A stretch of 64,000 nucleotides of DNA, from positions 1 through 64,000 of the forward strand of contig CBDAOB010000004.1 in the NCBI GenBank assembly GCA_965197905.1, read 5' to 3'. How positions within the stretch are numbered: position 1 is the stretch's first letter; each line of letters starts with the position of its first letter. This document shows, in pieces, positions 13,737 through 35,069 of the stretch. The position numbers were made by a program, and so were the translations under genes. The notes under the pieces are model-generated. The model had not been told where the DNA came from, did no database searches, and saw only the letters and a program-made list of their open reading frames with translations. This stretch comes from Candidatus Latescibacterota bacterium. GTDB lineage: Bacteria > Latescibacterota > UBA2968 > UBA8231.

Positions 13737-13945
13737 GGCCACTTCGGATGTCCTTGTGCAACTTGGGTTTTCCAGGCATTCTGCGAGCGCTACACTCCGT
13801 TGGTCTCCCAGAGTTCAACTGTTCCCCTAAACGCATAATCATAGTAGACCTATCTCCTTGTAGTACATAGAAAAACCGCAATGCGAGGGCTACCGGCGAT
13901 TTTCCCTTCACCGGAGCGCTCGCCGGGAACATGGCGAAGCCCCCG
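13737..13945 (-). promoter_or_regulatory. CRISPR leader
   Basis: Non-coding, lower-GC stretch between cas2 and the first intact repeat, with recurring tgcgagcgct / tgcgagggct / gagcgctcgc motifs. Confidence 0.75.
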
Positions 13946-14239
13946 CTAGACAATTGTGGCCTGCCGGGTCGGCGCCTCATATGTCTTGCCAAGACTTTCT
14001 ACAAGGGGATCGACCCGGTCGGCAGGCCCCAAGTCCACGATCAGGATATGGTCTTCCGCCAACGCGATCAAATCTTCCAAACGCGCGGTCATCTCGGCGC
14101 GCCGCCGGGCGGTCAGCCGGCACTGGAAGACCGACAACTGCAGCCAGTGGCCGTAACCTTTCATCACCTTGAACACGCGGCGCCAACGTTTCGGTTCGGC
14201 TATGTCGTAGGCGACGATGTAGAGACGCTCGTTGGCCAT
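13946..14239 (-). CDS. cas2: CRISPR-associated endonuclease Cas2
   Basis: YIVAYDIAEPKRWRRV..MKGYG.WLQLSVFQC. Confidence 0.97.
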   Translation of the reverse strand: MANERLYIVAYDIAEPKRWRRVFKVMKGYGHWLQLSVFQCRLTARRRAEMTARLEDLIALAEDHILIVDLGPADRVDPLVESLGKTYEAPTRQATIV

Positions 14240-14244
14240 ATCGG

Positions 14245-15957: not shown

Positions 15958-16019
15958 GCGATGGGTGAGGTGGCCACTGGCCGTGGTTTTACATTTGCAC
16001 ACACATCATTTTGATGTAT

Positions 16020-16100
16020 GCCATTCTGCCAAGCGAAGGGTGGCGTTGCTCCACAACTCGGCGAAGAACGCGGGGAAGTCTTCGCGCTCCAGCCTGCCAC
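16020..16100 (-). pseudogene. Relic of a cas3 5' end
   Basis: ctgccaagcgaagggtgg (16026-16043) is identical to 21603-21620; translates as LEREDFPAFFAELWSN/PPFAWQ vs Cas3 LSSTDFAEFFGKLWDKPPFAWQ. Confidence 0.8.
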
Positions 16101-16122
16101 CGCTTCGTGCGCGTCCCGACGC

Positions 16123-17670: not shown

Positions 17671-17761
17671 GGGGGCGCGTTACTCCGATCAGGGAGGACC
17701 AACCGGGTCGGTGTCGAAAGCTCGCGGCGGACAGGGCGAGGGGTGAGTTGGCGGTCGCGGG

Positions 17762-18694
17762 TCATGCAGGTACGGCAGGTGTGAAATTGCGATATTTGTC
17801 CCTGGTAATTCGCTGACTCCGGTAAATCTCGATAACTCCTCTCGCTAAAAGACTCTTGCGATCCGGACGGGGCTTTTGCAACTCGGCCAAGCTGAGCAGT
17901 GACCGCACGGCGTCAATACTCAAGGGCACTTCCCAGATCGGCCATGTGAACAGCACACCTTCGCCACGGCGCTGCGAAAAGCCGGTCGTATGCAGGTGCC
18001 GTTCCCCAGGTGCGGTAGGGAAAAGGGGCAGCGCTTCTACGGCGAGACGATTGGCGCCACGCACCGTACGCACTGGATCGCCCGAAGGTTCCTTCCAACG
18101 CAGCGCGTACCTGCGGTCGTCCAAAGGATCCCAGCGCAGACTCGGCTTGGGGTCTGAATATTGCCACGGCTCAAACAGGGAAGCGTGCAAATGATCAGGT
18201 TTGGTGTTTCCCACCAGTTCTCGCATGGAGCCGATGAAGTGCTGATGTCCTGCTCCGCTCATGGTTCGTAGCGCTGTGTCCTGAATACGAGAGTCTTTAG
18301 CGGAGATGGGGAGGCTATCGCAGCCAAAGGCGGCAATGAAATCTGCGTAATGACGATCGGTGAGATCCGCTGCGTTGCTGGCGGATTGAGCCACTTTTCG
18401 GAACTCCTCGCAGTTGATCGTCAGATCATCGGCAAACCCAAACGCATGATCGCCCTTCATCTCTGTTAGAGCGGGCATGAGTAGTTCGATCAAACCCTCC
18501 GCCGTAATCCCTGTGTCCCCAAGCAATACAGGGGACCAGTGCCCTCCTCTCACTTTCCAACTTACACGCCAGTCCGCCGATGAGTTTGCCTCAGTCGCAA
18601 TTCGCAAGGTACCAATGGCTGCGAGAAATCCGAGCGGATTACTGCCGTCGAGTCCGTTCAGCAAAAGACCTCGGGCTGATCCATTTGCCGTCAT
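17762..18694 (-). CDS. Type I-G Cas8g-like short large-subunit protein (Csb3/Csx17-related)
   Basis: LNGLDGSNPLGFLAAIG N-terminus, SGAGHQHF, LRWDP..RRYALRW..P, GANRLAVEALPLFP, FTWPIW; ATGA overlap with cas3 stop. Confidence 0.8.
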   Translation of the reverse strand: MTANGSARGLLLNGLDGSNPLGFLAAIGTLRIATEANSSADWRVSWKVRGGHWSPVLLGDTGITAEGLIELLMPALTEMKGDHAFGFADDLTINCEEFRKVAQSASNAADLTDRHYADFIAAFGCDSLPISAKDSRIQDTALRTMSGAGHQHFIGSMRELVGNTKPDHLHASLFEPWQYSDPKPSLRWDPLDDRRYALRWKEPSGDPVRTVRGANRLAVEALPLFPTAPGERHLHTTGFSQRRGEGVLFTWPIWEVPLSIDAVRSLLSLAELQKPRPDRKSLLARGVIEIYRSQRITRDKYRNFTPAVPA

Positions 18695-21683
18695 TGTGTC
18701 TCCTCCCGTTCGCTCTGCCGCCAATCAGCGAGTCGCAATAGGGCTTCCAGCCAAGCCAAGCCCCACCAGCCATAGCGTCGAACCAGCCGCCAGTAGCGAT
18801 CCGCGACGCCGGAGTCCAGGCGTTCAAGATTAGTAGGGCCGGACCAGTGCGGCCGTTGGTCGCGCAACTCGAAATCTACATCTACGCCCTGCTCGTCGAA
18901 TACCACCGGCGCGAACGGCCGACAGTGGCCGTGATGGCTGGCAATCAAATGAAGAACCAAGTCGCGCAGCTCATCGCTTTCGGGCAATAGAATGGGCGCG
19001 TTTTCGGCCATACGCACCGAAAGCAGTTCGTGCCGGCCTCCTTCCGGGTATCCGGAGTCCTTGCGGGCGAGATTGCGGGCAGCGCGGGTCTTGGGCATTC
19101 CAGCAGACTTGGCGAGAAGTTCTCCGCCGAACCAGCGATCGCCGCCCCGCAACAAAGACTGAAATCGAGGATCACTTTTGCCCAGATCGTGCAGCAACCC
19201 CGCGTGGGCGATGGTCTCAACCAAGTCTTCTGGCAAGCCGCAGCCCACGGCATGACGGCGGGCGAACGCTTCGACTCCGGGAAGGTGGGTTCGTAGTTTG
19301 ATGGGATGCCCGTTGCGGTGCGAAATGCCGGACGCGGAGGCATCGTCCTCGTCGCTGAAGCTGTCGGCTTGGTGGGCGAGTTTAGGTATGCGGCGGCGTC
19401 CGAGGAGGACGATACTTTTGTCGCCGACAACGCGATAGGCATGGTCCAGTCTGGAGCCGGAGTATTCTTTGCTCAACTCTTTTGCCGCTTCCGGCAACCA
19501 AGACCAGTCTTCCGGGAGCGGTTCCGAGGCGGCCAGCTCGGTCAGCAATTCCCTCAAGACATCACCAACCTCATGAGGGTCGTCATCGTATCTCCGTTCC
19601 AAACCATTTAGCAACTCTCCAGCAGCATCTTTAGCCGCTACACAATCTGGCCAAGCGTTCACCAGGGCCGGATGCAGGCGGAGGATGGGCTTGGCGCGGG
19701 CGAGCCGATAGGCGCGGTCACCCACGTCCAAGTCGGCGCCCGGCGGCAGGTCGCCAAGCTGATGCCGTGGGAGGGGATGGTTGGTCGGGATTACGATGAC
19801 GTCGCCGGGCCGGATCTTTGCGGGCTCCGATGTGATGTCTTCGAGTTTCGTTTCGGTCCCGAGCCACCGGATTACCTGGCGATCCGCAGGGGACGAACCT
19901 TCTTGGTCCATGTCGGCCTCTGTCCGACTGCCCTCCACGTCGGCGCTATCGTCGTCCGTGTCGTTTCCGGCCAACCAGCGTTTGAACATGCTGATCGGTA
20001 CCGGGAGCGTTTCGCTGCTGCTGGGCGGACACAAGGACAATGACTCAATCGCATGTTCCCGTGATTCTTCGTTCGTCAGATCCAGGTCGGCGCGCCAGCA
20101 GACTTGCACATCCGCCGCGCCTTCACGGGGTCCGTGCAGAAACGGAGCCACATCGGGCGAAGGTTGTGGTTCCGGCGCTGTCTGCGACCAGCAATCGACA
20201 TGGGCGGGAAGCATCACCGGGGCATTGACGGACGGCGCGTTGAGTGCGGCCAGGGAATCGCCCTTCGGCAACTTCACCTCGATATGAGCAATCCCGAAAT
20301 CGACCTCGCCATTTTCGTTTTTGCACCCGTTGAGCCAAGCCCAGGTATCGGTCAGGGCCTCGCCGTAAACAGGATCGTCCTGCTTTTTCTCGGCATCGGC
20401 TTGGTCGCCGCGTACGAGAATCACTGCTTGCGCCTCGAGCGGACGCCCCATGCGATTCAACCGGCCAAAGCGCTGGCGCAGGGCGTCGAGACTGGCGCAC
20501 TCAGTCACAAGACCATCGAAGTCGAGATCGGCCCCGACTTCCAAGGTTTGGGTGGCGACAACGATCAGCGGCCTTGCCAAATTACGCGCTTCAGAATGGC
20601 GGGATTGGAGCGGTTCCAATTGGTGCTGAACTATGGCGTCCTTGTCGACGGGACGCATCCGACCTGTCAGCAGTACGGCGTCAATGTCCTCTCGGCTGTG
20701 GAGCAAGCCATAGGTCGCCCGCGCCGTGGCAACGCGGTTGACGAACACTACGATAGCGCGTCGTTCATCGTTGACCAGTCCCGATGCAGCCTCGGCCAAG
20801 GCCCTGGCCAGCACGCTTGTGGCCTGCTTTCCCTTGGCTTTTTCGACCGCCTTCAAGATGGCGAGCTTATCCGCTAGTTGGCGCCGGCCTAGCGGATGGG
20901 CAGGATCGCGGCCTTCGTCGGATTGATCCTCGAATACATCCTCTATCCCAGGAGGCGGTGTGGCCGACATCACCACGGGATAAAATGGACGCCCGAGCGG
21001 AGCATGCGCCCATGTTTGGAAACGTCGAACCGCTTGCAGGGTCTGCAGAAACGGCTGTGCACAGTGCGCCTCGTCGAGCAGGATCAGGCTGTCGTTGGCG
21101 ACGAGTCCCGCGTAAATCGGCCAAGTGACGTGCCCGCGTCCATAGGCGCGGAACAACAAGCGGGAGCCGATCTGATCAACGGTCGAGGCCACCACCGTAG
21201 GTTGTAGCGGACTGCGAGCCCACGCTTCCGACCGGTACATGCCGCCGCGCAATACATGGCGGATAGCGGCCGTTCGTCTTCAGAGCAGGTCGTTTCACCG
21301 CCGGCAACCTGCCGGAGATTGTCCGCGATCGTCTTCAGAATGCCTTCCTCGGCACTCTCAAGTTTCTCTGCCAATCGGCAGGCGCGTTCATGCGCCTCAT
21401 CCACGATCACGCGCCGATCCACCACGAAGAAAATGCGGCGCGGCGCGGTGATGGTCTGCTTCCGGTCCAGCCGGGAAGCCTGGGCAGCTAACGCGAAGAT
21501 CGCGATATCCAGACACGCGGTTTTGCCGGATGCTGTCGGCAAGGCGATAGCCTCGGGCCAGGGAGCTTCTGCTCGTTCCAGTATTCTATCCGCCAATGCC
21601 TGCTGCCAAGCGAAGGGTGGTTTGTCCCACAACTTGCCGAAGAACTCGGCGAAGTCTGTACTGCTCAGCTCGACGTTACCCAC
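18691..21683 (-). CDS. cas3: Type I-G Cas3 helicase with C-terminal HD nuclease; one frameshift near 21255
   Basis: PFAWQ, LPTASGKT, STVDQIGSRLLFR, DEAH, MSAT, QRFGRLNR; C-terminal LHDLGK, RHE, HLIASHHG, LRLADW. Confidence 0.93.
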
Positions 21684-22699
21684 TTGAATGCCATTTCTTT
21701 GGAGCTTACGGAGGCAACCGTTAATTCGAAATGCTGGCCCGGCTTGGCGTCGGCAGGCACGTCAATGGTGTCTTGTATCGGGCCTTGTAGCCCGCTTTCC
21801 AGATGCTTGGCCTTCCAGCCGCCTTTCCTGGTCTTCTCCTCCACGAGTTCTGCTTGGACGCGGTCTCCGGGTTTGACGCGGGTTCCTGTGTACAGGGGCT
21901 TTGGGGGAACCTGCTGGGGACTTGGAGTGGTGGAGGTCTTACAGAGGCGAAAGCGACCGTATCCGACCGCCGTCTTGGCGCCGATGCCGATCCATTCCAG
22001 GGCTTCCTGCAGCCAAGCGCAGACGGTTTTGCAGTGTTCCCGGGCTTCATCGGACTGTCGCCTGGGAACAATCGCAAAGTGGAAGGTCGTCCTTTCCCCG
22101 ACTACCAGAAACGGTATGGGGACCGGGCTGATCCAGTCACCGGGAGGTGCGCCCTTCTGATAATAGTCGGTGTAATGCGGCGTCATTACGTCGGCTTTCA
22201 AACCAACAGGTTTTAAGGGCAGGGCATCAAGGAAAGCCACTTGTCCTACTTGCTGTTGTGAACCTAGAATGCTCTGGCGCTTCTGCTTTTCACCCTGCCA
22301 ATGCTCGGCCCAGGCACCGACCATACCTTTGATGGAAGAGCCCGGCAGATAGGGAACGCCGAGGGTATGATGCCAGAGGAAGCCGTTTTCGATCGGGTGC
22401 TCGCGGCCCAGTCCGGTCACGAACGGACTGATCGTTTGCATATAGATGCACTGACCGTTCAATGCTCTGATCAAGTTCTGTTGGCGCTCGGCGTATTGCT
22501 TCAGTTCCTCGCGGTCTCCGCAAGGCCGCTTCGTAACCGTGGCTATCCACCCTTCTTTGTCCAATTCAGGAGCCTGGACTTGGGATACGGAATCAGGGAT
22601 GGTCCACTGATTGCAGAACTTGTCGTACCATAAGCAGGCATTGCCGCCGTCGGGCAACTCGGCAATATCCGCTTCCTGGTAGAGAGGGCGTTCAGGCAT
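21665..22699 (-). CDS. cmr6: Type III-B RAMP Cmr6 with short C-terminal beta-barrel extension
   Basis: TGLG.EHPIENGF, GVPYLPGSSIKG, DVMTPHY, GIGAKTAVGYG. Confidence 0.95.
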   Translation of the reverse strand: MPERPLYQEADIAELPDGGNACLWYDKFCNQWTIPDSVSQVQAPELDKEGWIATVTKRPCGDREELKQYAERQQNLIRALNGQCIYMQTISPFVTGLGREHPIENGFLWHHTLGVPYLPGSSIKGMVGAWAEHWQGEKQKRQSILGSQQQVGQVAFLDALPLKPVGLKADVMTPHYTDYYQKGAPPGDWISPVPIPFLVVGERTTFHFAIVPRRQSDEAREHCKTVCAWLQEALEWIGIGAKTAVGYGRFRLCKTSTTPSPQQVPPKPLYTGTRVKPGDRVQAELVEEKTRKGGWKAKHLESGLQGPIQDTIDVPADAKPGQHFELTVASVSSKEMAFKWVTSS

Positions 22700-23105
22700 T
22701 GTCTTGTCCCTGTTGTACGTCACTCAAATAGGCCGTAGCGAATTTTTTCAACCAACTCAGGTATTGCTGAGATTCGGCTTGAGCGCGTAGATAATGCTGC
22801 TGGTCATTGCGGGTAATCGCCTGCAGCAGGTCTTTTTTATTTCGATACGACGCGTCTTCGTCATCGCCGCACAGCCAGCTTTGCAAGTCTTGATAGAGCA
22901 GGGCGTGAGGATCCATCTCATTTCCTTTGGCGGTCGCGAGCAGCGTCGCCATAGCCTGCCCAAGACCGTTTTGCTGAATCGTTGCCGGCAATGCCTTGGC
23001 GTAACTCAAATACTCCGATTTCTTACCGAGAGCTTGGCGCTCTTTGACGCGGTTCAATGCGTGCCCGGCGCGGCGTTGATCAAGACTTTGATTGGTCATT
23101 TTCAT
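22692..23105 (-). CDS. cmr5: Type III-B small subunit Cmr5
   Basis: LDQRRA..A, Y.SYAKALPATIQQNGLGQA, WLKKFA. Confidence 0.93.
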   Translation of the reverse strand: MKMTNQSLDQRRAGHALNRVKERQALGKKSEYLSYAKALPATIQQNGLGQAMATLLATAKGNEMDPHALLYQDLQSWLCGDDEDASYRNKKDLLQAITRNDQQHYLRAQAESQQYLSWLKKFATAYLSDVQQGQDNA

Positions 23106-23940
23106 GCCCCTGCCAAGTCACGTTAAACCAGCCTTGGCCAATAGTCTCATTGGCACCAACCTGGAGATACGGACGGCATTCTAATTTTTCGACGAGTGTC
23201 TGTATGCAATTTGTCTCAGCATTCCGTTCCGCCAATACTGAATACATCAGCGTGTCCGGCGACAGAGTCTCCTCATACCACAGGCTCTGGCTCTTTTTTT
23301 GGTCGTCAAGCGCGTTGCGCGCCTGCACGGCAAGGCCGAAGGCGGCAAACCAAGCGAAATCGTCGCCATGCAGCACTACCAGTTGCTCCGGTAACCGGCC
23401 TCGAGCCGTGGCGTCGCCCATCAGGCCGCCGATGACCTGTATCCAGCCATTCAGGGGCGCGCTTGGCTGACTGTCGTCGGACGCGGTCGGTTCGAAGCTG
23501 CGTTCTTCCAGGTATAGCTTGGCGTTGCCTTTACCGCTGTTGCCGAGGTAACTGCCCTTGTCGACATCGGGCGGGTGCTCCGCTGCACTGCCGATGCCCG
23601 ATCGCTTCATGTCCCGCGCCAACCGCTCCAGCAAGTGCGGGCATGTCACCCAACGATAAGCCGAGATCAGGCTGCGGACTGGAAGCAACAGCAATCGCGC
23701 ATCCGATACCAGCAGACCGCCTGCTTGGTCCTGTTTGCCGAAAAGACTCTCCTGTTTGTCCTTTTCCATACCTCGTTGTTTGGCCGCATCGAGCAAAGCT
23801 CCCTTCAAGCTGGACCCGGCAATGTACGGATAGTCCGTTGCTGCCTCACGGGCCACCGGAAGATCAATGGCACCGCCTGTCTGCCCGGCGCCGGGATGGA
23901 TGAAAGTTTCGGCCAGCAGGCCGAGTAGTACCTGTTTCAT
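23080..23940 (-). CDS. cmr4: Type III-B RAMP Cmr4 (target RNA cleavage)
   Basis: IHPGAG, IDLPVARE (catalytic Asp), GSSLKGAL, DARLLLLPVRS, LWYEE, QVGANETIGQG. Confidence 0.95.
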   Translation of the reverse strand: MKQVLLGLLAETFIHPGAGQTGGAIDLPVAREAATDYPYIAGSSLKGALLDAAKQRGMEKDKQESLFGKQDQAGGLLVSDARLLLLPVRSLISAYRWVTCPHLLERLARDMKRSGIGSAAEHPPDVDKGSYLGNSGKGNAKLYLEERSFEPTASDDSQPSAPLNGWIQVIGGLMGDATARGRLPEQLVVLHGDDFAWFAAFGLAVQARNALDDQKKSQSLWYEETLSPDTLMYSVLAERNAETNCIQTLVEKLECRPYLQVGANETIGQGWFNVTWQGHENDQSKS

Positions 23941-25109
23941 GACGATTGCTCCGTAATGCGGTCCTGTTGATGGTGCCAACGTCCCAGAACGATGAGTCCG
24001 AAGCCCCAGGCCGCGCGGTTGCCGATGGTGGTGCCGTGTAACTTTTTTATACTGCCAAGATGTTCTGCCCGGGCTTCCAGAAAAACCACGCTGCCTGGCG
24101 CCAGATGCGGCCGTAGCGGCAACGGCTTACGGGCCACCGAATCCCAACCGCCGATGACCACCGGACGGGGCAGACAGGCACTCACGACTCGCCCCGGCAA
24201 TCCGGCGTATCGCTCATCACCGGGGCGCGGGTGCGTTCCCGTGTCGGCGGGCGTGAGGACGATGACGGTGTAGCGAAGCGTTCCACCGGAAGGCTTTAGG
24301 CCGGTCCGGTTCGGAAGCCGCAGGACTTCTTCTTCCAGGCGAAGCCAACAGGCACGCGACTCTCCGCCCACCGGGTGAGGACCAGCGGGCAAAGGATTCA
24401 TGCACTCTTCCGGCAAGCCGTGCGCTTCCATCGCCAGCGTCACACCCTTGCCGAGGCGGACATGGACGGGCGAGTACATGGCGCCTTCCTCTATGGTCCG
24501 GGTCGCTTGGGAACGGGCGATGCCCACCCGGGGTTCCCGCTTCCACAGATGATCCTGATGGACAAGACAGGTGGGATCGGGAGGCTTGTTTTGCAACACC
24601 GTCCCAAGCCCGTGCGCAGTAAGCCACCAGCCTTTTTCGCGTAGCAGTCTGGCACCTTCCGCCGCGCCAACGGCAACCGGCAGCAACGTGTCCTGGCCAA
24701 GATCGCATGGAGTACCGGGACTCTGGGCAGGAGAAAGCAAAGACAGAGACTCGAATGCAGGTTGTTTCTTGTCCGCTGTCTGGTTCCTGATTGTTTTGCC
24801 CATCAGATGCGCCGGAGCCGGAAACAGGAGTTCGCTTCCGCCGTCCGTTTCACGGACGATAACCGGCCCGCGGAAGCGCAGCGGCCCCAGGTCGCGTCCG
24901 TCCCCGAGTTGATTCCGGACCTCCTCGTTCCAATTGCCGTGTTTCCAACCCAGAAAGCGAGCGCAAGCGGCGCGCACGGCGCCGACCAGTGTCGGCGGGG
25001 CGGGCGGAAACGTACCGACGACTCCGGTTTGACTCAGTTCTCCCTGATTGTAGGACCGGCCATCCCGGAAGAAGAGGGTGTCCAGCGGCTCGAAGTGCAC
25101 CAGCGTCAT
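23937..25109 (-). CDS. cmr3: Type III-B RAMP Cmr3
   Basis: EPLDTLFFRDGR, FPPAPPTLVGA, VGGESR, IGGWD, PGSV, WGFG. Confidence 0.93.
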   Translation of the reverse strand: MTLVHFEPLDTLFFRDGRSYNQGELSQTGVVGTFPPAPPTLVGAVRAACARFLGWKHGNWNEEVRNQLGDGRDLGPLRFRGPVIVRETDGGSELLFPAPAHLMGKTIRNQTADKKQPAFESLSLLSPAQSPGTPCDLGQDTLLPVAVGAAEGARLLREKGWWLTAHGLGTVLQNKPPDPTCLVHQDHLWKREPRVGIARSQATRTIEEGAMYSPVHVRLGKGVTLAMEAHGLPEECMNPLPAGPHPVGGESRACWLRLEEEVLRLPNRTGLKPSGGTLRYTVIVLTPADTGTHPRPGDERYAGLPGRVVSACLPRPVVIGGWDSVARKPLPLRPHLAPGSVVFLEARAEHLGSIKKLHGTTIGNRAAWGFGLIVLGRWHHQQDRITEQSS

Positions 25110-27041
25110 GACGTTCCTTCCTCCTTTGATGGATCGAAGTGGGTTGTCTCCGCCAGAAAGCGGGCGATGAGAAGGCGCCGTCAAGCTGAAAAGTCGAGCC
25201 CGCGCTTGGCGACTCGTCTCCGCGCTGCCTGCCACAAGCGGCAAGCAGATCGGATACGGACGCCTCCGCATCCTGTTGTGTACTATCGTCCTTGAGCGAA
25301 GCACTCTTGACGTATTCCGCCAGAACAATGGCGGGGGCGATCATCTGCGTCGATATCGTTGAGCAAAGGCGCCGTAGCGTTGCCGCAGATGGTAGAAAAA
25401 GCCGGTGGAGTAACAATTTTCCCGGATCCGATTACGGAGCTTGTTTGAGCGCTTCAGGCAACGTTCCAAAGCGTCCAACCCAACGGACTTTGACGCCGCC
25501 GGGCAGCATGACGGCAAGCGCCAACGAATCGCGCTCGTTGCTTCCCTTGGCCGTGTCATGGAGTTCTCTATGGGCACAGGTCCACCACTTCGGGCAACGG
25601 GTTGTGGTAATGGGAAAAAATAATAGCGCAGGAAGCGGTTGCCCAGACTTCATTGTTGCTATTGCTTCCAGGTTCCAAATCCTGGAAGGCGTCACCATAG
25701 GCGCTGCGGAGTTGAATGGCGCATTCGACGGCGTTGGTGATTGGCAACATAGCCCAGAACGTCATCGCCGCCGGCATAGACGGTTACGCCGTTGTGTTGC
25801 TGGACAATGTCCGGAACACGCCGGACGAATTCCGCCAGGGAATTTGGAAACGACTTGTTCCCCTTTTTCCGTAACAATTTGCCGAGATGGTCGCGTCCAT
25901 CAGCAGCAGCGCGTAATAAGGTTCGGCGTTGACGCCGACCGCTTTGCCAAGCGTCGCCAAGGCATTCAGCAACTGCTCGCGAAGCGGCCGCGTCGGGGTC
26001 GTCCGTGTCCTGAAACCTTTCTGGCATTCAGAGGCGTAGCACGCGGTTGGCCAGCGCCGTTTCGAGGAACAGATTGCCGTCCAAATAGGCGTCTTGTTCG
26101 AGCGTGGCGAGTGCGGGCAGCCGCGTCGTGCGTTCGCTGGTTAGTTGCTTGAATGTCTCCTCATCGACAGATTTCGAACAACCGCGACATAATCGGACAA
26201 ACTCTTGCGACTGGCCGGATTGTCAGCGATGTGAGCCAACCACGGCACCGCCGAGAGGTAAACGGTTGAGGGCCAATTTCGTGCCTTGAACGACCATCCA
26301 ATCGTCTCTTCCAAAACCCACTTTTTCAGCTTGGGAAACAGGCGTTTTACCAGGGCAACGGCGCACAGGACGTTCACCGTCCCGAAGATCGAGTCGTCCC
26401 GTCCTGTCCTGCAACGCTTTCCAGAAGACGTCCTGCTTACACCGCTCTCGACTGCGCACGAACCCGGACAACTCCTGCCAGTCGCCCATAACGGTGCAGT
26501 GATCCCCGCCTTCTTCAGGCGGCCAATGGGAACGCCAGTTTTTGCGCGCATCAAGCCAGGCGCCGTCACTGCTGTCGCCCGGATCAGCGCCCATCACCCA
26601 TTGAATCTCCCAAAACCCGTCGATCTGGCGTTCCCAAATGGCACGGGTGCTATTGCCTTGATCGGTGGACTGTGCGACGAATTGCTTCCACACCTGCTCC
26701 GTCAATGTCCGCCATTTCTGCATCGCGGTGTTCACGATGCCTTCCGGGACAAATGTTTCTGGCACCGATGCCTTGAACCGATTGGGCAGGGAGCCGATGA
26801 CGGGAAGTGGAGCGTCAACCGCAGGGTTGTCCATTATCGCCGCCAACAGCGGGTCTTGGGGGCTGTCACACGTGCCCACGGAGGGAAACAGAATCTGCCC
26901 ACCCTGACACAGTGTTTCCGCCATGAGTTGCCCCGCCAGCCACGAAAGCAGGAAAGAGCCCGCCCAGAGGTCGCGCGTACGCCGTGCCTGGGCAACGAAG
27001 CCCTGTACCGGGCCGATGGAGATGTGGAGGAGCATCGTCAC
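25106..27041 (-). pseudogene. cas10: Cas10/Cmr2 (no HD domain, GGDD intact), broken by several frameshifts as assembled
   Basis: SIGPVQGFVAQARRTRDLWAGSFLLS, SLPNRF, LCAVALVKR, PYYALLLMD/DHLGKLL, VYAGGDDVL (~25755-25782), spread over several frames. Confidence 0.9.
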
Positions 27042-28057
27042 AGTTTCACCTCCACGACTTCGGCAAATGGTTCCTCGCGCTGCTGCGGGTCGAGAAGGCG
27101 GTCAAGAAATTTATGAACGGGGCGGTACAGCTCTTCCTCTGGAGCTTGGCGCACCCTCGTCCCTCCAACCGAGATGTCCGATTTGCCCTCGGGCAGAAAC
27201 CGGGCGGGAAGAAACGACAGGACCGAGACAGGTGTATGGTCGCACTCGTGGATATGGATGAACAAAGGGCTGGCGCGCCGGTCGTTTCTACGCCCACGAG
27301 GAAGGCCGAAAGCGATGCGTCCCCGACGGTGACAGGATCGAACGGCGTTTTTGTATTCGCCTCCAATCAGGTCCAGCAACCGCAAAGGTTCGGTTTGGCC
27401 GCTCGACACCAGCACATGGCGGGTCCGCTTGGACAACGCCGTGTATTTGGGGAATTCATTGGGTCCGCCGCCGGTGTGAAGGGCCTTGATCCGGTCGCCG
27501 AGATCTGTCATGGCCTCCGGCTCCCGCCACTCTTCCCGACCGTTGACGCGTAGCGACTCGATAACCAGTGAGCCGTATCCCTTACGACTCCGGGCACCCA
27601 TACCCCCGATGGTCCCAAGCGCGATCAGTGCGCGTTGCAGAGACTTCGACTGTTCATCACAGAGGTCGCGCTCGCGCAGGCGGACGGTGAAGTGCAATGG
27701 GGGTGGGAGACACCCGCGCTCTTTTTCGGGACCTCTCTCCATGACCCCGTAGCCAAGGTAACGGGCGCTCTGTCCAACTCTCAGATTCTTGCCGAGCATA
27801 GTCTGTCCGTCAGGTGGATTCAGTCGCATCAACACGCGGGACTGGCCACCCGCCGCGCTCCCGAAGAGCGCGGCTTCCCGCTTCTGGGTTTTCTGAAGAT
27901 CTCCGTCGTACTGCGACCAAGCCAACGCCCGCCACCAGAACCGCAGGACACCCTTGAAGCTGGGCAGGCGAACCTCGGCGTGCCGCGGGTTTGCGCCAGC
28001 GCAAAACATCGGGGTAACAACACGGTAAGTCGCTTCAATTTCGGTACGCATCAGCAT
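27038..28057 (-). CDS. cmr1: Type III-B RAMP Cmr1
   Basis: VVTPMFCAGA, RLPSFKGVLRFWWRA, LFGS, GGMGARSRKGYGS, RRASPL. Confidence 0.95.
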   Translation of the reverse strand: MLMRTEIEATYRVVTPMFCAGANPRHAEVRLPSFKGVLRFWWRALAWSQYDGDLQKTQKREAALFGSAAGGQSRVLMRLNPPDGQTMLGKNLRVGQSARYLGYGVMERGPEKERGCLPPPLHFTVRLRERDLCDEQSKSLQRALIALGTIGGMGARSRKGYGSLVIESLRVNGREEWREPEAMTDLGDRIKALHTGGGPNEFPKYTALSKRTRHVLVSSGQTEPLRLLDLIGGEYKNAVRSCHRRGRIAFGLPRGRRNDRRASPLFIHIHECDHTPVSVLSFLPARFLPEGKSDISVGGTRVRQAPEEELYRPVHKFLDRLLDPQQREEPFAEVVEVKL

Positions 28058-29783
28058 CCTCCTCGTCGAGCCAGAACGGCTCGCCCGCTTGGTACGGGTC
28101 GTTCTCCTGCTCGCCTGGCGGACGTCTGTCGATCAAGCCGAACCGTCGCACCGATGGACAGGCGAAGGAGTGCGCCTCGCTTGCCAGGCTTTCGGCGGCA
28201 AGCCCCATGAGCGTCGTGCCGCCAGTCACATTCACGAGCACTTCGTCGGCACCGATGAAACGCCTTCGCGCGGTGCTCACCAACTGCTTGATCTCATCTG
28301 GCCCACCACCGAAGGCGTCTTCCAGGGCCAGCGCCTCGGAATCGCCCTCGAACCTGGAATGTTTCAACGCCTCCGCTATCAACTCCTCGGTCTCGCGCGA
28401 ACAGATGACGAGGCACAACTCCGGGTCTCGACCATCCTCGTTCGCCCGACATGCCTGCACGGCGCTGAACAGCACGCCAGGGCGTAGTCCGATGGGGCTG
28501 ACCAGAATCCGGCCGCCGGGCGACACGGGCAGCGACAGGGAGAAGTCGGGGAGCGACTTCAAGGTCTCCTCCCAGAAGCACACTACCAATTTGCGTGTCG
28601 CCGAGATCGTTCCATCCCGGACAAGGTCATCGCCACGCATTCCATGATGCGCATACGCATTGCGAACATCGGCAAGCTCATCCCAAAAGTTACCCAACAC
28701 GCGTTGTTCTTCAGTCAAATCGTCTCGGAGCGCAACGTCCGTGCCGATTGCCTTGATGGCATGAAGAAGTCCCTCCGCGTTGCGCCGCACATTGTGGTGA
28801 AGCCAGTCGCCCTCAGGGGTTTGTCGGAAGATGACCCATGTCACAGTCCATTCGCGCATCAGTCGAAGCGCCGTCGCGAAGTTCTCGCGCCTCAGCAAAT
28901 CGTCGATTACTCTGGCTTGGCGCTTCAGTTCATCCCTGGACAGCGAAACCTTCCGTTTCCATCCATTGCCTGAAACCGGCTCGGTCAAGGCGAAGGGTTC
29001 GATCATCTTGTCGAGTCGATTAACCAACTCGTCGGCAAGGGGCAGACGATGTTCGAGTCGCAACATCTTCTTCAGCGGCTTCAGGCATTGCTCGCGCACG
29101 CCGCGCGCCTGCTGACCCAGCTCGATGGGCAGTCCCGACAGGTACGCTTCCGAGAACCGGGACAGATCCCGCGCAACTCTTTGCGCTAACTGACTGTCCG
29201 GCCGGCCGCGCAGCGCCTGGGCCATGGGCAGCGCGCTACCCGTTTCGCGGATGACCTCCAAAGCATGAACCCAGCGGGGCAGTTCCAGAATCGGGCGCAA
29301 ATCAAGGAAAGCGCTTGGCGCATCCCGATTCAGCATCCCATAGTACGCGCCGCGTACATCGACACTGCGCAGCGCAGCCAGATACAGAACGGAGACGTAG
29401 GTAAGGAACGAGAAGTGCCGAAATCCGTGCGTCACGTCCAGCGTGAGTTCGGCCTTCTCTGGAATGGCACCGGTAACTATGGCTAAGAAAGCATTGACGT
29501 CCTCCGGCGTGTCGCCGCCGGGGACCTCAACGGCCCTGACCGGGTACCGGTCGCCCAACTCCCGTTCAAGCAGCGGCCAACTTTCCTGCCTCGCCTCCGG
29601 CGTGCAGAGCGCCAAAACCTGATCAGGACGTTGTGCCTCGGGCAGTAGATCGTACAGCGCGATGGGCGCGAGTTGAGCTTTGGCACACCGATCTTTAAGA
29701 GTGTAATGCGCCGGTTTTGGGTCCTTGCCAAGCACCGTCAGCAGCAAGTGCTCCCGCGCCGGACCATCGTTCAACTCAGTCAC
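28035..29783 (-). CDS. csx1: Csx1-like CARF-HEPN ribonuclease with an additional C-terminal CARF-like domain
   Basis: N-terminal LTVLG and LDVTHGFRH (DxTHG), HEPN RNAYAH (RxxxxH), C-terminal VSPIGLRPGVL ... VNVTGGTTLM. Confidence 0.88.
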   Translation of the reverse strand: MTELNDGPAREHLLLTVLGKDPKPAHYTLKDRCAKAQLAPIALYDLLPEAQRPDQVLALCTPEARQESWPLLERELGDRYPVRAVEVPGGDTPEDVNAFLAIVTGAIPEKAELTLDVTHGFRHFSFLTYVSVLYLAALRSVDVRGAYYGMLNRDAPSAFLDLRPILELPRWVHALEVIRETGSALPMAQALRGRPDSQLAQRVARDLSRFSEAYLSGLPIELGQQARGVREQCLKPLKKMLRLEHRLPLADELVNRLDKMIEPFALTEPVSGNGWKRKVSLSRDELKRQARVIDDLLRRENFATALRLMREWTVTWVIFRQTPEGDWLHHNVRRNAEGLLHAIKAIGTDVALRDDLTEEQRVLGNFWDELADVRNAYAHHGMRGDDLVRDGTISATRKLVVCFWEETLKSLPDFSLSLPVSPGGRILVSPIGLRPGVLFSAVQACRANEDGRDPELCLVICSRETEELIAEALKHSRFEGDSEALALEDAFGGGPDEIKQLVSTARRRFIGADEVLVNVTGGTTLMGLAAESLASEAHSFACPSVRRFGLIDRRPPGEQENDPYQAGEPFWLDEEDADAYRN

Positions 29784-32139
29784 CGGCCTCACCTTTTTCG
29801 TCCATGGGCCGGCACAGTCCATATCCCCGGAAGCGACCGGCTCCGACGAGCACAGGCCCCTGCACCGGCTCGTCAAAGACGATCACCGCGTGGTTGTGGC
29901 TCCGTCGCCCACCATCGTTCTTGCGCGTCAATTGCGGATACTCCCTCGCATGGGGCACTCCCTCGGCTAGCGAAACCGGGTGCAGCAGCACCTCGCGGGG
30001 ACGCGGCAGACCGATGTGCCCGCACATGTCCTTCACGTTCTCGGCGGCCCGTTCCCACTTGTCCTTGCCATCGAAATGCCGGTTCAGAACCACCGGGGTC
30101 ACGCTCGTCCAAACACGCGATTTCTGTGTCCAAGTGTCCGGGGCAAGATTTCTCGGCGGCCGTTCGCGGATCTCCATCCCGAGGACGCACTCGAACCACT
30201 GGCCGTCAAACAACCGATGTTCACGCGGCAAGCCCGTAGCCGAATCGCGCAGGAAAGGTTCGAGGCAGTGCCCGACTTCCTGCTGATCCAACCCCGCCGG
30301 AAGGGCTAGAGCCAAACCCATAATTCGGCCATCTGCATGTTCCGCGCCGACGAAAGGCAGAGGAGTCAATGCCAGATGCGGTGCGGTGGTGGGGGTGCCG
30401 TCTGGGCGATGACCGCTGAACCATTCCGGCGGCGGTTGTTCGGGACAGGCTCCCATCAACAGGCCGCGCAGGGCCGCCGTGAGTTTGAGCGTCGCCGGCA
30501 GGGATACGCGCTTTCCCTTGACGCTGAAGACAATGAGATGAGGGTCGAAAACGGACCCGGGTACTTCGGGTAACCCTGCTTCTCGCGGTCGATCGTATCC
30601 CTGCCAGCGGCCCGGTACCGGTCGCAGAGTCGTCGGTTCCCCCTCGGAAAAACGGGTTCTCAAACGCTCCTTCATTTCCTTTATATACTGTCTTTGCTCG
30701 CGAGGACTTCGCCTGTTACTCGATCCACTTCCGCCTTGCTTTGCCGCAGCAAGTCGATTTCGGATGGTGTCAACATCCGGGGAGCGGGCGAGGTACCGAG
30801 CCTCCGATTGAGTAAGGCAATCGAAGGCGTGGCCGAAATGTGCTTTCCACCATGCTTCAAAGTCTGATCCGTGCTTTTGTCGGAGTTCATGCAATTGCTC
30901 CTGTGAGGGGTTTAGTTTGGCAGAGTAGGGTTTGCCTGTCAGCGCAACGGCCCCGACGACCTTGCCACCCTGTTTCTCAATCCAGCCACGCAGATTTGCC
31001 AGCGTACCGCCTTGGCCGATGAAATCGTCCACCATCACGTACTCTCGACCAGCTTCGATTGGGCCATCAAAGCAAGCTTGGCGAGCAAGGCGACCATAGC
31101 CGTCCGCGCCTGTGTGGGAGACGACGTTCGTCTGTACAATAGTAATCTCGCGGGTGATACCGAGTCGCTCGCTCAGCAATCTCGTCAAGGCAGCAGGAAT
31201 AGCATTGAGACCTTGGCCTTCCCAAGCATGTGCGCTGACCAGTATAGGATTTCCACTTTCACTGACGGAGGCGACTAGTGCCTGAATTGCGGCGATGCCT
31301 GCTTCATTAACCAAGCTGTTGACGAGGTACGCCGCGCCCACGACGTCATTACTCGTTTTCGCGTCAGGATATTCGGGACACTGTTTGACATCGGATTCGC
31401 CGGCCAGCAACACCGCGTCCGCAAATGCTTCCCAAGCCATCCTTGGCGGTTGCTTCATCGCCTTGGCGTCGGTCTCGGCCTGTTCAATCTCGCCGCGGAT
31501 ATCTTGGTATTCGATCCAATCGTCGCGATTACAGGCTCGGATAAGTCCGTCAAGCCGCCCGGTAGAGGGAACTCGCAATCGGTGTTTGGCGATTCCGGCG
31601 GTCGGCTCCCAAGCAACGGCGAAATCGCCATCCTCCTCCAACCACGCTTGCACAAAAGAGGCGGAATGCCCCACATGAGTGACCTTGGCAGCCAACCGTT
31701 CCATGCTGTTGCGATGCGCACCCAACTCCGTCTCTGGCCACATAAGATGCACTGTCGGGTCGTGGGGGATGGCAACCGGGAAACCACGGGGCTGGCGCGA
31801 CCGATGCTCGGGAAGCTGGGTCAGTCCGGCATCCTTTAGTTTGTTCAGGTCTCCGCTGGTGGGCCTCTTGCGACTGAGGCCCGCGTCGTTGACTGGCACA
31901 TAGCTGACAACAGCAGCACGAGTGTCAGCATCCGAGGCCGCAAGCTCAGGGGGCGGCAGGGTTTCGAGCCAGCGCAGGGCCTCGCCTTCGGCGGCGTCTT
32001 CGCCGGTCTCAAACCAAGCTGCCGCCAAAGCCAGGAAAACCCGATCCGGATGCGGCGGCCATTCGGCCCGCTCCTTTCGCGCTCCGTCCGCTGCTGCCAT
32101 TGACCATCCATTCAGGTAATGGATGCCAAGAGCGAACAT
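29776..32139 (-). CDS. csb2: Type I-G Csb2 (Cas5/Cas6 fusion) with in-frame inserted phosphoribosyltransferase domain
   Basis: AEWPPHPDRVFLAL, ALRWLE, VGHSAS at the N-terminus; WFSGH, HLA..PLPFVG, WTSVTPV, GPVLVGAGRFRGYGLC at the C-terminus; insert ~31449-30731 with VMVDDFIGQGGTL. Confidence 0.92.
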   Translation of the reverse strand: MFALGIHYLNGWSMAAADGARKERAEWPPHPDRVFLALAAAWFETGEDAAEGEALRWLETLPPPELAASDADTRAAVVSYVPVNDAGLSRKRPTSGDLNKLKDAGLTQLPEHRSRQPRGFPVAIPHDPTVHLMWPETELGAHRNSMERLAAKVTHVGHSASFVQAWLEEDGDFAVAWEPTAGIAKHRLRVPSTGRLDGLIRACNRDDWIEYQDIRGEIEQAETDAKAMKQPPRMAWEAFADAVLLAGESDVKQCPEYPDAKTSNDVVGAAYLVNSLVNEAGIAAIQALVASVSESGNPILVSAHAWEGQGLNAIPAALTRLLSERLGITREITIVQTNVVSHTGADGYGRLARQACFDGPIEAGREYVMVDDFIGQGGTLANLRGWIEKQGGKVVGAVALTGKPYSAKLNPSQEQLHELRQKHGSDFEAWWKAHFGHAFDCLTQSEARYLARSPDVDTIRNRLAAAKQGGSGSSNRRSPREQRQYIKEMKERLRTRFSEGEPTTLRPVPGRWQGYDRPREAGLPEVPGSVFDPHLIVFSVKGKRVSLPATLKLTAALRGLLMGACPEQPPPEWFSGHRPDGTPTTAPHLALTPLPFVGAEHADGRIMGLALALPAGLDQQEVGHCLEPFLRDSATGLPREHRLFDGQWFECVLGMEIRERPPRNLAPDTWTQKSRVWTSVTPVVLNRHFDGKDKWERAAENVKDMCGHIGLPRPREVLLHPVSLAEGVPHAREYPQLTRKNDGGRRSHNHAVIVFDEPVQGPVLVGAGRFRGYGLCRPMDEKGEAGD

Positions 32140-33341
32140 CAGCCTTCCTCCGCTCCCGAGGCGCTCGCCAATTCCTGGCTGCGCCGGACCAGTTCAACCA
32201 AGTCGGGTGATGGGGTCAGCTCAATCTCGCCCTCCCACGGCAGGCCGACATCTTTGGCCGCGGCAATCGCCGCTTCCAACAATTTCAGCGCCTCTTCGGG
32301 ACCAAGTTCAAATTCCCGTGGAGATTCTCCGGGACGATCAAGTAACTCCCAAATTGGCTCTTGCTCGGCGAACAACTGACAGCGAGAACGAAGGTCCGTA
32401 TCGACTCGCGCAAGGCTTCCGGCAGCCAACCCAAGTACGGCCAGCGCGGTGCGAGCAGCCAGGTCGGTATCGTGGTCGGAGTCTGCGGAACCGTTGAGGG
32501 GAAAGCGAAGACGGCGCAGGACGGTCAGAGACAGGGTCGTAGTCTGCCGTGCCCTGGAGATGGTGAATCCGCCTTCCGCAATACTCGTTAGTATGTTTCC
32601 ATGATTCGCTTCCGATGGCCTTCCCGTCTTCTTGAACTTCTTGTTGCCGTCCTTCTCATCCAAGGTCCAGTCGGGCGTGCTCTCATTTTTTGATTTGCGC
32701 TCGTAGAGGGTAGCCGCATCGCGCATGATCTCCGCCGGGTCGATACGGATGGCGGTTTTCTTCCCCGCTACCGCGTTATACCCCACAATTTCCGACACCA
32801 CCGTGCGCTGGAATTTGCACCCCAGGCCGCCACGAGGCCCGGTCGAGTCCCATAAACCGAACACTAGCGCCGTAGGACAGAGCCCGAACAGGCCCGTGGC
32901 ATTGCGTGTGTCCGCGGTGTGGAGGATTCGGCCCTTCTCGGACCTGCGGAAGATCGTGCTGTTCAGCAGACTGTCGCGGAATAGCGCATCCGCAACTCGA
33001 TGCGGAGCCTCGAGGCTGGTCACCGTGAACGGCTTGAGCAATTGCTCCTGGTCGAAACGAGCCACCAGCAAAGGCAGCTTCACCTTGTCAGCGCGGTGCG
33101 CCTCCAGCAAAGCCAACTCCATGCGGTTGGCCTGCGACTGCACTGAATCCAGGAGGACGCATTGTCGAATCTGGCCGGTCTCGGGGTCGACGCGCTCCTC
33201 GGTGGCGTATTTGCCGCCTTCGTAGGTCGGGGGGAATACCTTGTCGCCGGGGCCTCCTGTCGGCTGATAGTCGGTCACGCACCGAAACGCTGCGGCCGTT
33301 CCGGCGACCGCGTCCTTCAAGGTCTTTAGATCAATCATCAT
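32139..33341 (-). CDS. csb1: Type I-G Cas7 (Csb1)
   Basis: GDKVFPPTY, LDSVQSQANRME, APHRVADA, PTALVFGLWDS, RPSEANHGNI, LRSRC; gaggag RBS; TGATG coupling to csb2. Confidence 0.95.
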   Translation of the reverse strand: MMIDLKTLKDAVAGTAAAFRCVTDYQPTGGPGDKVFPPTYEGGKYATEERVDPETGQIRQCVLLDSVQSQANRMELALLEAHRADKVKLPLLVARFDQEQLLKPFTVTSLEAPHRVADALFRDSLLNSTIFRRSEKGRILHTADTRNATGLFGLCPTALVFGLWDSTGPRGGLGCKFQRTVVSEIVGYNAVAGKKTAIRIDPAEIMRDAATLYERKSKNESTPDWTLDEKDGNKKFKKTGRPSEANHGNILTSIAEGGFTISRARQTTTLSLTVLRRLRFPLNGSADSDHDTDLAARTALAVLGLAAGSLARVDTDLRSRCQLFAEQEPIWELLDRPGESPREFELGPEEALKLLEAAIAAAKDVGLPWEGEIELTPSPDLVELVRRSQELASASGAEEG

Positions 33342-33544
33342 GGTCTCTCCTCGTTTGTTGGCTGCGCCTTTCCACGGCGGTGATTTGACATCCGTCTCAA
33401 TTCTTTCGTTGGGTCTCACGCTGGGGCCAAGCCCCGGGCATAGCGGTTTTCTTTGTTGACGGGTCTATGGTTGATCGCCCGTCGGTAGCGTAGGACGGCT
33501 TGCCGTCCAGGACTTCACGAAGTAGGTAGCGCTGAAAACAGGTG

Positions 33545-33637
33545 ACACGATATAATTTTATCGTTATATTTTAAACAATATCTACTTTATCTACTTTATC
33601 TACTTTCAACTACCATCCAAAAGATAATACGATATAT
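33545..33637. promoter_or_regulatory. AT-rich putative divergent promoter region of cas operon and mini-array
   Basis: Strongly AT-rich in a GC-rich genome; palindrome acgata-N6-tatcgt (33547-33564); 3x atctacttt tandem (33580-33606); TTGAAA on - strand at 33609-33604. Confidence 0.6.
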
Positions 33638-33752
33638 GTTTCCGATGCACAACACCTTTTCTCGGACCTCGTTGAAGCGATGGCAGTTGTCGTTTCCCGC
33701 ACGTAGTATGTGCATACTTTCCGGGGCCTCGTTGCCCCGGCCTCATTGAAGG
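33638..33752 (+). CRISPR. Degenerate mini-array (pseudo-repeat, 38-nt spacer, repeat), oriented opposite to the main array
   Basis: 33717-33752 ctttccggggcctcgttgccccggcctcattgaagg matches the main repeat at 32/36; 33638-33678 keeps tttccg, a tccga/tcgga hairpin and the cctcgttgaagc handle. Confidence 0.85.
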
Positions 33753-33830
33753 CTGGGAGAAGACGCCGCCAAGGCAGTCACCCCGGCCCTCTTCCACGGG
33801 GCAGACATCCAGCGAAGCAGAGCCTAAAGG

Positions 33831-34456
33831 CGCCGCCCGCCCGTCGATTGGATACGGCCCACGGTGGCCCCCGTCCGCGCTCATTTCGTATCACGAGCTA
33901 CCATTCTATACCACACCATCACACCACCGCTCCACCGCACCGCAACTCCGCCAGCTTGTACCGCTGTCCAGCCGAGGGCCTGGCGCGCTCCGCCAGCTTG
34001 TACCGCCGTCCTGTTATCGTTACTGATTCCTTGCACAACCTCGTGGACAAAACCCTGATTCGCCATAACCACCGCGTCCCGCGCGGCAGAATCCCCTGAC
34101 TTGATCCTTTGAAAATGATCAACCTCTTCCTCCCCCGTCAGAGGAGTGGCCTGTTCCATAGTTGAACCCCCCGTTGGGATGGGCGAAAGCACTACCAAGT
34201 CGACAACTACCCCCATTACCCGACCTGAAAATCACAGAAACCCAAAGTAACTATAGACTTACCCCTAGTCGACAACCACATGCTGATTTTTTGGCGGATA
34301 TTACCTACAACCCACTGTGGGGCCCGGCGCTGACGCGCCGCCCGCCCGGCGCTTGGATGCGGCCCACGGTGGCGCCCGTCGACGCGCACTGCGTATCCCA
34401 CGCTACCATTATATACCGCGCTCCGCCAGCTGGCACCGCTGTCCAGCCGAGGGCCA
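33831..34456 (+). repeat. ~120-bp imperfect direct repeat (33831-33980 and 34336-34456) with internal ctccgccagcttgtaccgc duplication
   Basis: Shared blocks cgccgcccgcccg, cggcccacggtggc, gctaccatt.tatacc, ctccgccagct, accgctgtccagccgagggcc. Confidence 0.8.
33881..34159 (-). pseudogene. Sigma70 region 1.2-2.1-like fragment
   Basis: PLTGEEEVDHFQRIKSGDSAARDAVVMANQGFV matches the L(T)xEEExxLxxRIxxGDxxARxxLxxANLxxV pattern; similarity ends where the repeat begins. Confidence 0.55.
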
Positions 34457-34796
34457 GCTTGTGTCGGTGTCCAACGGCCCCCGCGGGGCCCTCGATAATC
34501 GGGTTCAGACTAACGATAATGCCCCTTATCGTTGGTATGAACCTGCCAAACCGCCATCGCGCCACAGGTGGTAGGGCGCGGCGAGAGCGGCAGAAATCGC
34601 GCGCGCGAACGCCTTCATGCCCCCGTGTCGCCCCTGAAAAAACCTTGACACCGCATCATCACACCACGCATGCCGGAGGCCGCCATGACATCCGCCCCGA
34701 GCCCCAGCCCAACAGCGGCATCTGTTTTTTCACATGCCACGCGGGGAGCCGCGGCGCTCCCCCCCCTCCACACACGCTTCGAGGAGGAGGGCTGCG

Positions 34797-35069
34797 GTGA
34801 AGAATAGGATCTGCGCCTACGTCTATGAGTCTGGAGCGGAGTGTGGCCGCATCTCGCCCGCGGCTATTGCGAATTGCCACTACCAGCGCTGGTTGCGCGG
34901 TTCAAGCATGGAGGCCGCCATAGAGGCGTACGTCCACCACACCGGGTGTTTATATTGCGCCAGGAAGCACCACGCCAACGGCCTCTGCAAGATCCATTAC
35001 ACCCGCGCACGGAGAGGCGGAAAAAATATGGACCGCCCTATCCAGAGAAGGCGAAGGACGAAGAAATGA
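34797..35069 (+). CDS. Small phage-like Cys/His-rich protein (two C..C..CxxHY-like units)
   Basis: gaggaggagg RBS, GTG start; C-x9-C...CHYQRW and CLYC...GLCKIHYTRARR. Confidence 0.55.
   Translation: MKNRICAYVYESGAECGRISPAAIANCHYQRWLRGSSMEAAIEAYVHHTGCLYCARKHHANGLCKIHYTRARRGGKNMDRPIQRRRRTKK

Follow-up and report, generated by a model that had tools for sequence, protein, structure and literature searches.

The window analysed here, a stretch of 64,000 nucleotides, carries a type I-G cas operon on the - strand and, upstream of its first gene csb1, a small CRISPR-like array on the opposite strand, oriented divergently from csb1. Subtype I-G, the current name of I-U, is to our knowledge the least studied of the type I subtypes. 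The locus raises the question of whether this mini-array is a Cas-regulating gene of the CreR type, whose RNA would direct the effector complex back to its own operon as an autorepressor. Judging from the window and from related loci, we consider this likely.

To place the mini-array in its genetic context, we annotated the operon with family profiles, taking as type I-G a system with Csb1/Cas7g, Csb2 (a Cas5-Cas6 fusion), Cas3g and a Cas4-Cas1 fusion. Profiles of these core genes matched in the window (TIGR02570, 70.5 bits; TIGR02165, 290.7; TIGR02621, 600.9; NF049935, 776.7), and from csb1 as far as the Cas3-extension gene neighbouring genes touch or overlap, with a III-B module nested among them.

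32139-33341, - strand: csb1 (cas7g), first gene of the operon, with an AGGAG ribosome-binding site upstream (family profile)
29776-32139, - strand: csb2 (Cas5-Cas6 fusion, 787 aa), the expected processing enzyme (family profile)
21665-29876, - strand: nested III-B module with a TM1812/DxTHG-family gene, cmr1, cmr2 (in pieces), cmr3, cmr4, cmr5 and cmr6 (family profiles)
28035-29876, - strand: TM1812/DxTHG-family gene of this module
21665-28057, - strand: cmr1 to cmr6
13946-21683, - strand: cas3g, Cas3-extension gene, AAA-ATPase/PDDEXK gene, cas4-cas1 fusion and cas2, in this order (family profiles)
18691-21683, - strand: cas3g, frameshifted near 21260
13946-14239, - strand: cas2
12273-13763, - strand: main CRISPR array, 19 repeats and a degenerate terminal one (repeat search)

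Both csb1 and csb2 are intact. A 320-aa protein of the 'Cas3-extension family' (NF049934, 296.5 bits) adjoins cas3g, and between its gene and cas4-cas1 lies a 515-aa gene (16123-17670, - strand) with AAA-ATPase_like and PDDEXK_9 domains. No family match to the large subunit Cas8g/Csx17 was found among the selected ORFs scanned. The genes cmr1, 3, 4, 5 and 6 are present, cmr3 with a score below the curated cut-off (75.8 vs 100.4 bits). The cas3g gene is split between two frames near 21260 (21200-21340), and cmr2 is spread over at least four frames at about 25330-27041, in pieces of 292 and 111 aa. Four relatives in which csb1, csb2 and the DxTHG gene follow one another in the same order have an uninterrupted cmr2 frame of 631-729 aa. 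Contigs assembled from public runs (depth 3-6) showed an extra A at 21260 in X1 and X2, two runs of one sample, and, in one run, 1-nt indels at 25333, 25368, 25444, 26171 and 26368. Because these contigs carry indels at some of the affected places, the frameshifts in cas3g and cmr2 may be assembly errors or the alleles of one strain.

The main array is transcribed on the - strand, and its leader adjoins cas2. Its repeat, ATTTCCGGGGCGTTGTTGCCCCGGCCTCATTGAAGC, occurs in 17 copies with at most one mismatch and in two copies that lack 1 nt. At 12345-12488 a 72-nt unit of repeat plus spacer is duplicated exactly, both of its repeats being without one G. A search for operon terminators returned 17, with 19.8 expected.

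The mini-array was found where the preliminary description had placed it, and consists of three parts.

33638-33678, + strand: psi-R1, degenerate repeat (sequence, fold)
33679-33716, + strand: psi-S, spacer-like, 38 nt, with nt 1-11 (33679-33689) as seed (sequence, fold)
33717-33752, + strand: psi-R2, near-consensus repeat that supplies the 3' hairpin (repeat comparison, Rfam)

Most of the repeat sequence has been lost from psi-R1; what remains is a 5-bp stem (TCCGA at 33641-33645 with TCGGA at 33662-33666, enclosing a 16-nt loop), a 4-nt linker (CCTC, 33667-33670) and the 8-nt handle GTTGAAGC (33671-33678). According to the accessible text of Shangguan et al., these are the features needed by the I-G processing enzyme. 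By contrast with main-array repeats, psi-R2 differs at only 4 of 36 positions (1, 12, 14 and 36; read by eye), and outside the main array the repeat family has no other copy, since the 18 matches in the whole genome are the 17 of the array and psi-R2. It matched the Rfam family CRISPR-DR16 with 31.1 bits (E 5e-5), below the gathering score of 35, and Rfam returned nothing else over 33300-34700. Two repeat-like sequences thus flank one spacer-like sequence inside the cas locus and outside the main array, the ectopic arrangement of the CreR class. Folding predicted an internal hairpin in psi-S, GCACGTAGTATGTGC, at 33699-33713. As read by eye, similar short GC-rich hairpins just before psi-R2 appear frequent in the unpaired 3' half of the spacer; besides the window (GCAC...GTGC), they are seen in L005, L006, L013, L017 and L030.

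A search for a promoter of the mini-array itself gave only 8-9/12 matches with poor -35 boxes at distances that are not constant, and nothing convincing. Several observations concern its surroundings. Among public runs, three had contigs that contain sequence of 31500-35000, and none of the three is on record as RNA. In contigs of X1 and X2, psi-R2-like repeats (compared with window positions 33718-33751) are joined via unrelated stretches of 38-40 nt, so real arrays with the psi-R2 repeat variant exist in the material of these runs. Just past the mini-array, two direct repeats occur in two copies each, one at 33830-33912 and 34335-34417 (83 nt, 84% identity) and one at 33946-33980 and 34421-34455 (35 nt, 94% identity); a weaker third copy is present at G000:C4:2146524-2146618 (80%). 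The ORFs 33881-34216 and 34162-34800 beyond the mini-array had no family match.

We then examined the pairing of the spacer with the DNA upstream of csb1.

33607-33620, - strand: target, with PAM TTG (33620-33618) and an 11-nt protospacer-like site (33617-33607) on the csb1 coding strand (pattern search, cross-locus pairing)

Spacer nt 1-11 match this site (TTG followed by GATGGTAGTTG) at 10/11 positions, the sole mismatch being at position 6, and the reported end of the match at position 12 was confirmed, as just one of the next six positions pairs. The pairing is therefore PAM-proximal and leaves the remainder of the spacer unpaired, as in the CreR class. The seed pattern GATGGNAGTTG had two matches in the 64-kb window, namely the spacer and the site, compared with 0.07 expected, and none of 100 shuffles reached two; with TTN in front, the pattern occurred once in the 6,689,607 bases of the 6.69-Mb genome. 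TTN is the I-G PAM in the accessible text of Shangguan et al., in agreement with the preliminary description and with the TTN that precedes the target in 15/16 loci of the family described below. A comparison of the whole main array with 50,697 phage records gave one weak, irrelevant match, so the PAM assignment rests on the literature and the self-targets.

To determine whether the pairing is conserved, we collected 80 loci encoding Csb1 relatives (61-85% identity); the assembled genomes they come from carry the labels of many different phyla. Their upstream regions and that of the window (81 in all) contained 365 handle-like positions. A match was counted when a TT-flanked site agreed with at least 9/10 seed positions, on the opposite strand, between the mini-array and csb1. 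Sixteen regions passed this handle-anchored search; L027 was set aside as an artefact of a true array, leaving 14 relatives and the window with a TTN-flanked site on the csb1 strand at no fewer than 9/10 seed positions. One further relative, L017, has the same layout with CTA in place of TTN, so that the mini-array layout is common to 15/80 relatives, or 16 loci with the window. Controls gave far fewer matches: 0-1 for seed offsets 3-24, 1 for reversed seeds and 0-3 for ten shuffles. A second scan, which made no demand for a handle, looked for a TT PAM with a seed match and, 28-48 nt beyond, a GC-rich hairpin in the 59 relatives with csb1 first in the operon and in the window. It returned 14 loci, all already known, and the handle sequence NTTG[A/C]AGN stood directly before the seed in 14/14.

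The results showed that all 16 seeds (11 nt) are distinct and that each pairs with its own nearby site, which is the covariation of spacer and target that had been named as a check in homologous loci. The PAMs are TTA in five loci, TTC in five, TTT in three, TTG in two and CTA in one. Matches were found in 12-16 of the 16 loci at each of positions 1-5, 7-11 and 13-17, and in only 2/16, 4/16 and 2/16 at positions 6, 12 and 18, giving a 6-nt period; pairing halts after position 17, with 0-6/16 (background) from position 19 on. Across the 16 loci every sixth base thus tends to stay unpaired, as expected for Cascade. On sequence grounds, this pattern is the signature expected of a Cascade guide selected to bind without forming a full R-loop. 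The repeat geometry is preserved as well: in 13/17 loci, with differing sequences, psi-R1 has a stem of at least 5 bp that ends exactly 4 nt before the handle, compared with 22% of random anchors; the 17 include L012, which has a weaker seed (8/10, by eye) and was counted in this comparison only. Covarying seeds, PAM and periodicity in the related loci together support the CreR/CreA-like reading of the preliminary description.

The element was present in 16/60 regions with csb1 first in the operon (cas3g comes first in the other 21 loci) and is therefore dispensable. L042 retains only a psi-R2-like remnant, 15-47 nt upstream of csb1. Among 40 related genomes, the region was found in that of L006 only, and the same-genus genome L093 has a solitary psi-R2-like repeat at 1501-1538 (97% over 37 nt). 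The Csb1 relatives (L001-L080, 61-85% identity) come from genomes labelled as Latescibacterota, Binatia, Nitrospirales, Caldilineaceae, Gammaproteobacteria, Acidobacteriota and others, and this range of phyla suggests horizontal spread of the I-G variant.

To relate the target to transcription of the operon, we compared promoter-like sequences on the csb1 strand in the window and its relatives.

33624-33652, - strand: predicted promoter of the csb1 operon, -35 TTGTGC (33652-33647), 17 nt, -10 TATTAT (33629-33624) (homology, sigma-70 scan)
33555-33584, - strand: alternative promoter-like site TAGATA-18-TAAAAT (9/12), downstream of the target, with its first hexamer in a tandem block (consensus scan)

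The predicted -10 box ends 3 nt before the PAM, and the -35 box lies inside the psi-R1 loop. At the homologous position, most relatives have TTGACA-17-TAnnnT, and L006, from the same family of organisms, has TTGCGC-17-TATATT followed by 3 nt and the PAM. A sigma-70 match scoring at least 10 was found within 55 nt upstream of the PAM in 9/16 loci, compared with 2% of random windows. The two boxes are 17 nt apart in 15/16 loci, L017 having 16 nt. In 15/16 the end of the -10 box is 2-16 nt from the PAM; L017 has only a weak best match, which stops 20 nt short of it. Because the -10 box ends just upstream of the PAM, the target would cover the expected transcription start, and because the -35 box lies inside the long psi-R1 loop in many loci, the two divergent units overlap.

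The promoter of the window is assigned with some reserve, as its -35 is weak (TTGTGC, 3/6; the -35 of L006 is also weak) and a simple consensus scan picked the downstream site 33584-33555 rather than TTGTGC-17-TATTAT. Were that site the real promoter, its -35 would lie about 23 bp downstream of the bound Cascade. The stretch upstream of csb1 is AT-rich, as had been noted (GC 0.24 over 33550-33649), and the TTGAAA hexamer said to overlap the target is present (33609-33604, - strand); it has no good -10 at 16-18 nt (by eye). The comparison makes it more likely that TTGTGC-17-TATTAT is the operon promoter and that the site lies at the predicted transcription start, not on a TTGAAA -35.

A 276-nt leader separates the target from csb1. 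Its segment 33370-33560 has no second copy in the genome, and a repeated mobile element at this place was thereby ruled out. The last ~45 nt before the csb1 ribosome-binding site (window 33342-33390, - strand), which include a short hairpin, recur almost unchanged in L005 and L006 and can still be made out in L007, L024 and L015; L006 is without ~175 nt of leader that the window and L005 have in common. By eye, L005, L013, L017, L023 and L065 have a small ORF, preceded by a ribosome-binding site, immediately after the target, with similar short N-termini in L013 and L065; in these five loci the operon may begin with this additional gene.

The window itself has the shortest pairing of the 16 loci (10/11, vs 13-16/17 in the relatives). 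Two features next to the target bear on this difference.

33579-33606: perfect tandem repeat, 9 bp x 3.1 (28 bp), which abuts protospacer position 11 (tandem-repeat and deletion-length comparison)
33573-33578, - strand: displaced third target segment TTGTTT (33578-33573), which would pair with spacer nt 12 and 14-17 (deletion-length comparison, L006 homology)

We removed 0-45 nt next to the site in silico (46 lengths), and only a deletion of 28 nt restored the matches at 12 and 14-17. The restored extent equals that of the relatives, and the TTGTTT motif is the same as in L006. The five matches out of six after removal of 28 nt have a chance of ~0.005 as one planned test and of ~0.2 over the 46 lengths, so the case for an insertion is made by the agreement of this length with a tandem block that was delimited independently, and by the L006 homology. 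On this evidence, the 28-bp block reads as an insertion that splits an ancestral 17-nt target and leaves 11 nt of it, which would explain why pairing in the window stops at position 12. With its target cut from 17 to 11 nt, repression in this genome is probably weaker than in the relatives.

The same insertion bears on how far the circuit still works. Counted against the autorepressor reading are the short 10/11 match, the weak -35 box, the rival promoter, the frameshifted cas3g and cmr2, the missing match to Cas8g/Csx17, the failure to find a convincing promoter for the mini-array and the presence of the element in only 16/60 regions. Some of these points fit a relic, in which the window would belong to the I-G mini-array family with its circuit impaired or dead in this genome: the 28-bp insertion falls exactly at protospacer position 11/12, the match is the shortest of the family, cas3g lies in two frames and cmr2 in no fewer than four, and the four relatives mentioned above keep cmr2 intact. 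Nevertheless, PAM and seed are intact, as are the psi-R1 stem, the handle, psi-R2, csb1 and csb2; an 11-bp duplex represses in another CRISPR type according to the literature cited below; and the X1/X2 contigs differ by indels at 21260 and at the five cmr2 positions, so that the frameshifts may be errors of the assembly or alleles of a single strain. We regard a relic as unlikely, though it deserves to be kept in mind.

The long leader, together with the small ORFs behind the target in the five relatives, could also point to a guard of the CreTA kind, in which the RNA would repress a small toxin gene in the 276-nt leader and not the cas operon as such. The leader of the window holds only ORFs of 14 and 17 codons with no good ribosome-binding site (by eye), and no convincing creT-like toxin gene under the targeted promoter was found in it; the conserved part of the leader is not conserved as protein, L005 being out of frame, and with the target 45 nt (L031) or 101 nt (L006) from the csb1 ATG there is no room for a toxin gene. 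Such a guard is very improbable. Chance resemblance, or a functionless remnant of a decayed array, might be suspected from the brevity of an 11-nt match and from the solitary psi-R2-like repeat of L093, but is scarcely credible given that the site is unique in the genome and that 15 other loci show covarying seeds together with the right PAM and period.

In the autorepressor reading, which we prefer, the mini-array would be transcribed divergently from csb1, and Csb2 would cut within psi-R1 and psi-R2 to release an RNA made up of the 8-nt handle GUUGAAGC, the 38-nt spacer and the hairpin of psi-R2. Csb2 cleavage 4 nt 3' of the hairpin leaves an 8-nt handle (Shangguan et al., accessible text), and the psi-R1 geometry fits this processing because its handle has 8 nt and its stem ends 4 nt before it. 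Csb1 and Csb2 would assemble on the RNA as Cascade, which would read the TTG PAM at 33620-33618 while spacer nt 1-5 and 7-11 pair with the csb1 template strand. The complex would dock directly behind the -10 box of the predicted promoter, at the expected transcription start, with a pairing presumably too short to license Cas3, and would act as a roadblock, reducing transcription of csb1-csb2, of the nested cmr genes and of cas3g. The crRNAs of the main array would compete for the effector, so that a shortage of free effectors, through many crRNAs or an inhibitor, would relieve the repression.

This proposal has close counterparts in known systems. CreR represses cas promoters in subtypes I-B, I-E and V-A (Liu et al. 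2023, bioRxiv 10.1101/2023.03.10.532045), and the accessible text of that study lists creA-like elements for I-D, I-C, I-E, I-F and I-U from a manual search (Figure S7). Like CreR, the element described here is a degenerate mini-CRISPR of two repeats within a cas locus; its spacer pairs through the PAM-proximal part with a PAM-flanked site, here beside a predicted effector promoter, and there is no toxin partner. Unlike the tested CreR RNAs, it belongs to a subtype that appears there only in the list, as 'I-U', with none tested in the text available; Csb2, a Cas5-Cas6 fusion, would be the processing enzyme, the family shows a fixed three-segment pairing of 17 nt, the operon also holds III-B genes, and the element is known from sequence alone. 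With CreA of the CreTA module (I-B haloarchaea; Cheng et al. 2022, PMC9458426, accessible text) it shares the psi-R/psi-S/psi-R structure, partial complementarity to a (here predicted) promoter and Cascade as the (here putative) repressor, and it differs from CreA in that no creT-like toxin was found and the target precedes the cas operon itself.

Mini-arrays occur in ~15% of type I loci, and one, from I-F1, was tested (Shmakov et al. 2023, bioRxiv 10.1101/2023.03.03.530964, accessible text). They too have stand-alone repeats and spacers partly complementary to cas promoters, and in one example there a type I module lies on one side and a type III module on the other. The main text and two supplementary files of PMC10120712 make no mention of I-G or I-U, and its other supplementary tables may list I-G loci; the phage crlRNA preprint does not mention I-G/I-U either. 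In the II-A system, tracr-L represses its own cas9, for which an 11-bp duplex suffices without cleavage (described in Shmakov et al., 10.1101/2023.03.03.530964, accessible text). Its duplex with a cas promoter equals in length the pairing that remains in the window; the effector class and the RNA architecture are different. In the literature searched, as far as its accessible parts go, we found no regulatory RNA tested or described in detail for I-G, the 'I-U' listing of Liu et al. being the only entry. The known principle is thus unchanged and such elements are already listed for I-U; the local twist is the target shortened by an insertion.

For the I-G family, the 16 loci are a ready set for compensatory-mutation analysis. 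They also provide an in vivo read-out of which guide positions pair in I-G Cascade, with every sixth free, and of how much pairing is tolerated without cutting, and the insertion in the window offers a natural comparison of 11 with 17 nt. Beyond this, we put forward as a tentative, on balance doubtful, extension that the family uses a fixed 'three-segment ruler' (positions 1-5, 7-11 and 13-17, then a stop), holding Cascade on the transcription start without Cas3, that in the subset with nested cmr genes the expression of III-B as a backup would depend on the type I effector, and that the insertion in the window loosens this brake. The cmr genes are nested in the operon in the window and L006, and perhaps in L032, L042 and L063, and they raise a testable link between two CRISPR types: if the extension is true, III-B would be co-regulated with I-G, and loss of I-G Cascade to an inhibitor such as an anti-CRISPR would relieve the repression and switch on III-B.
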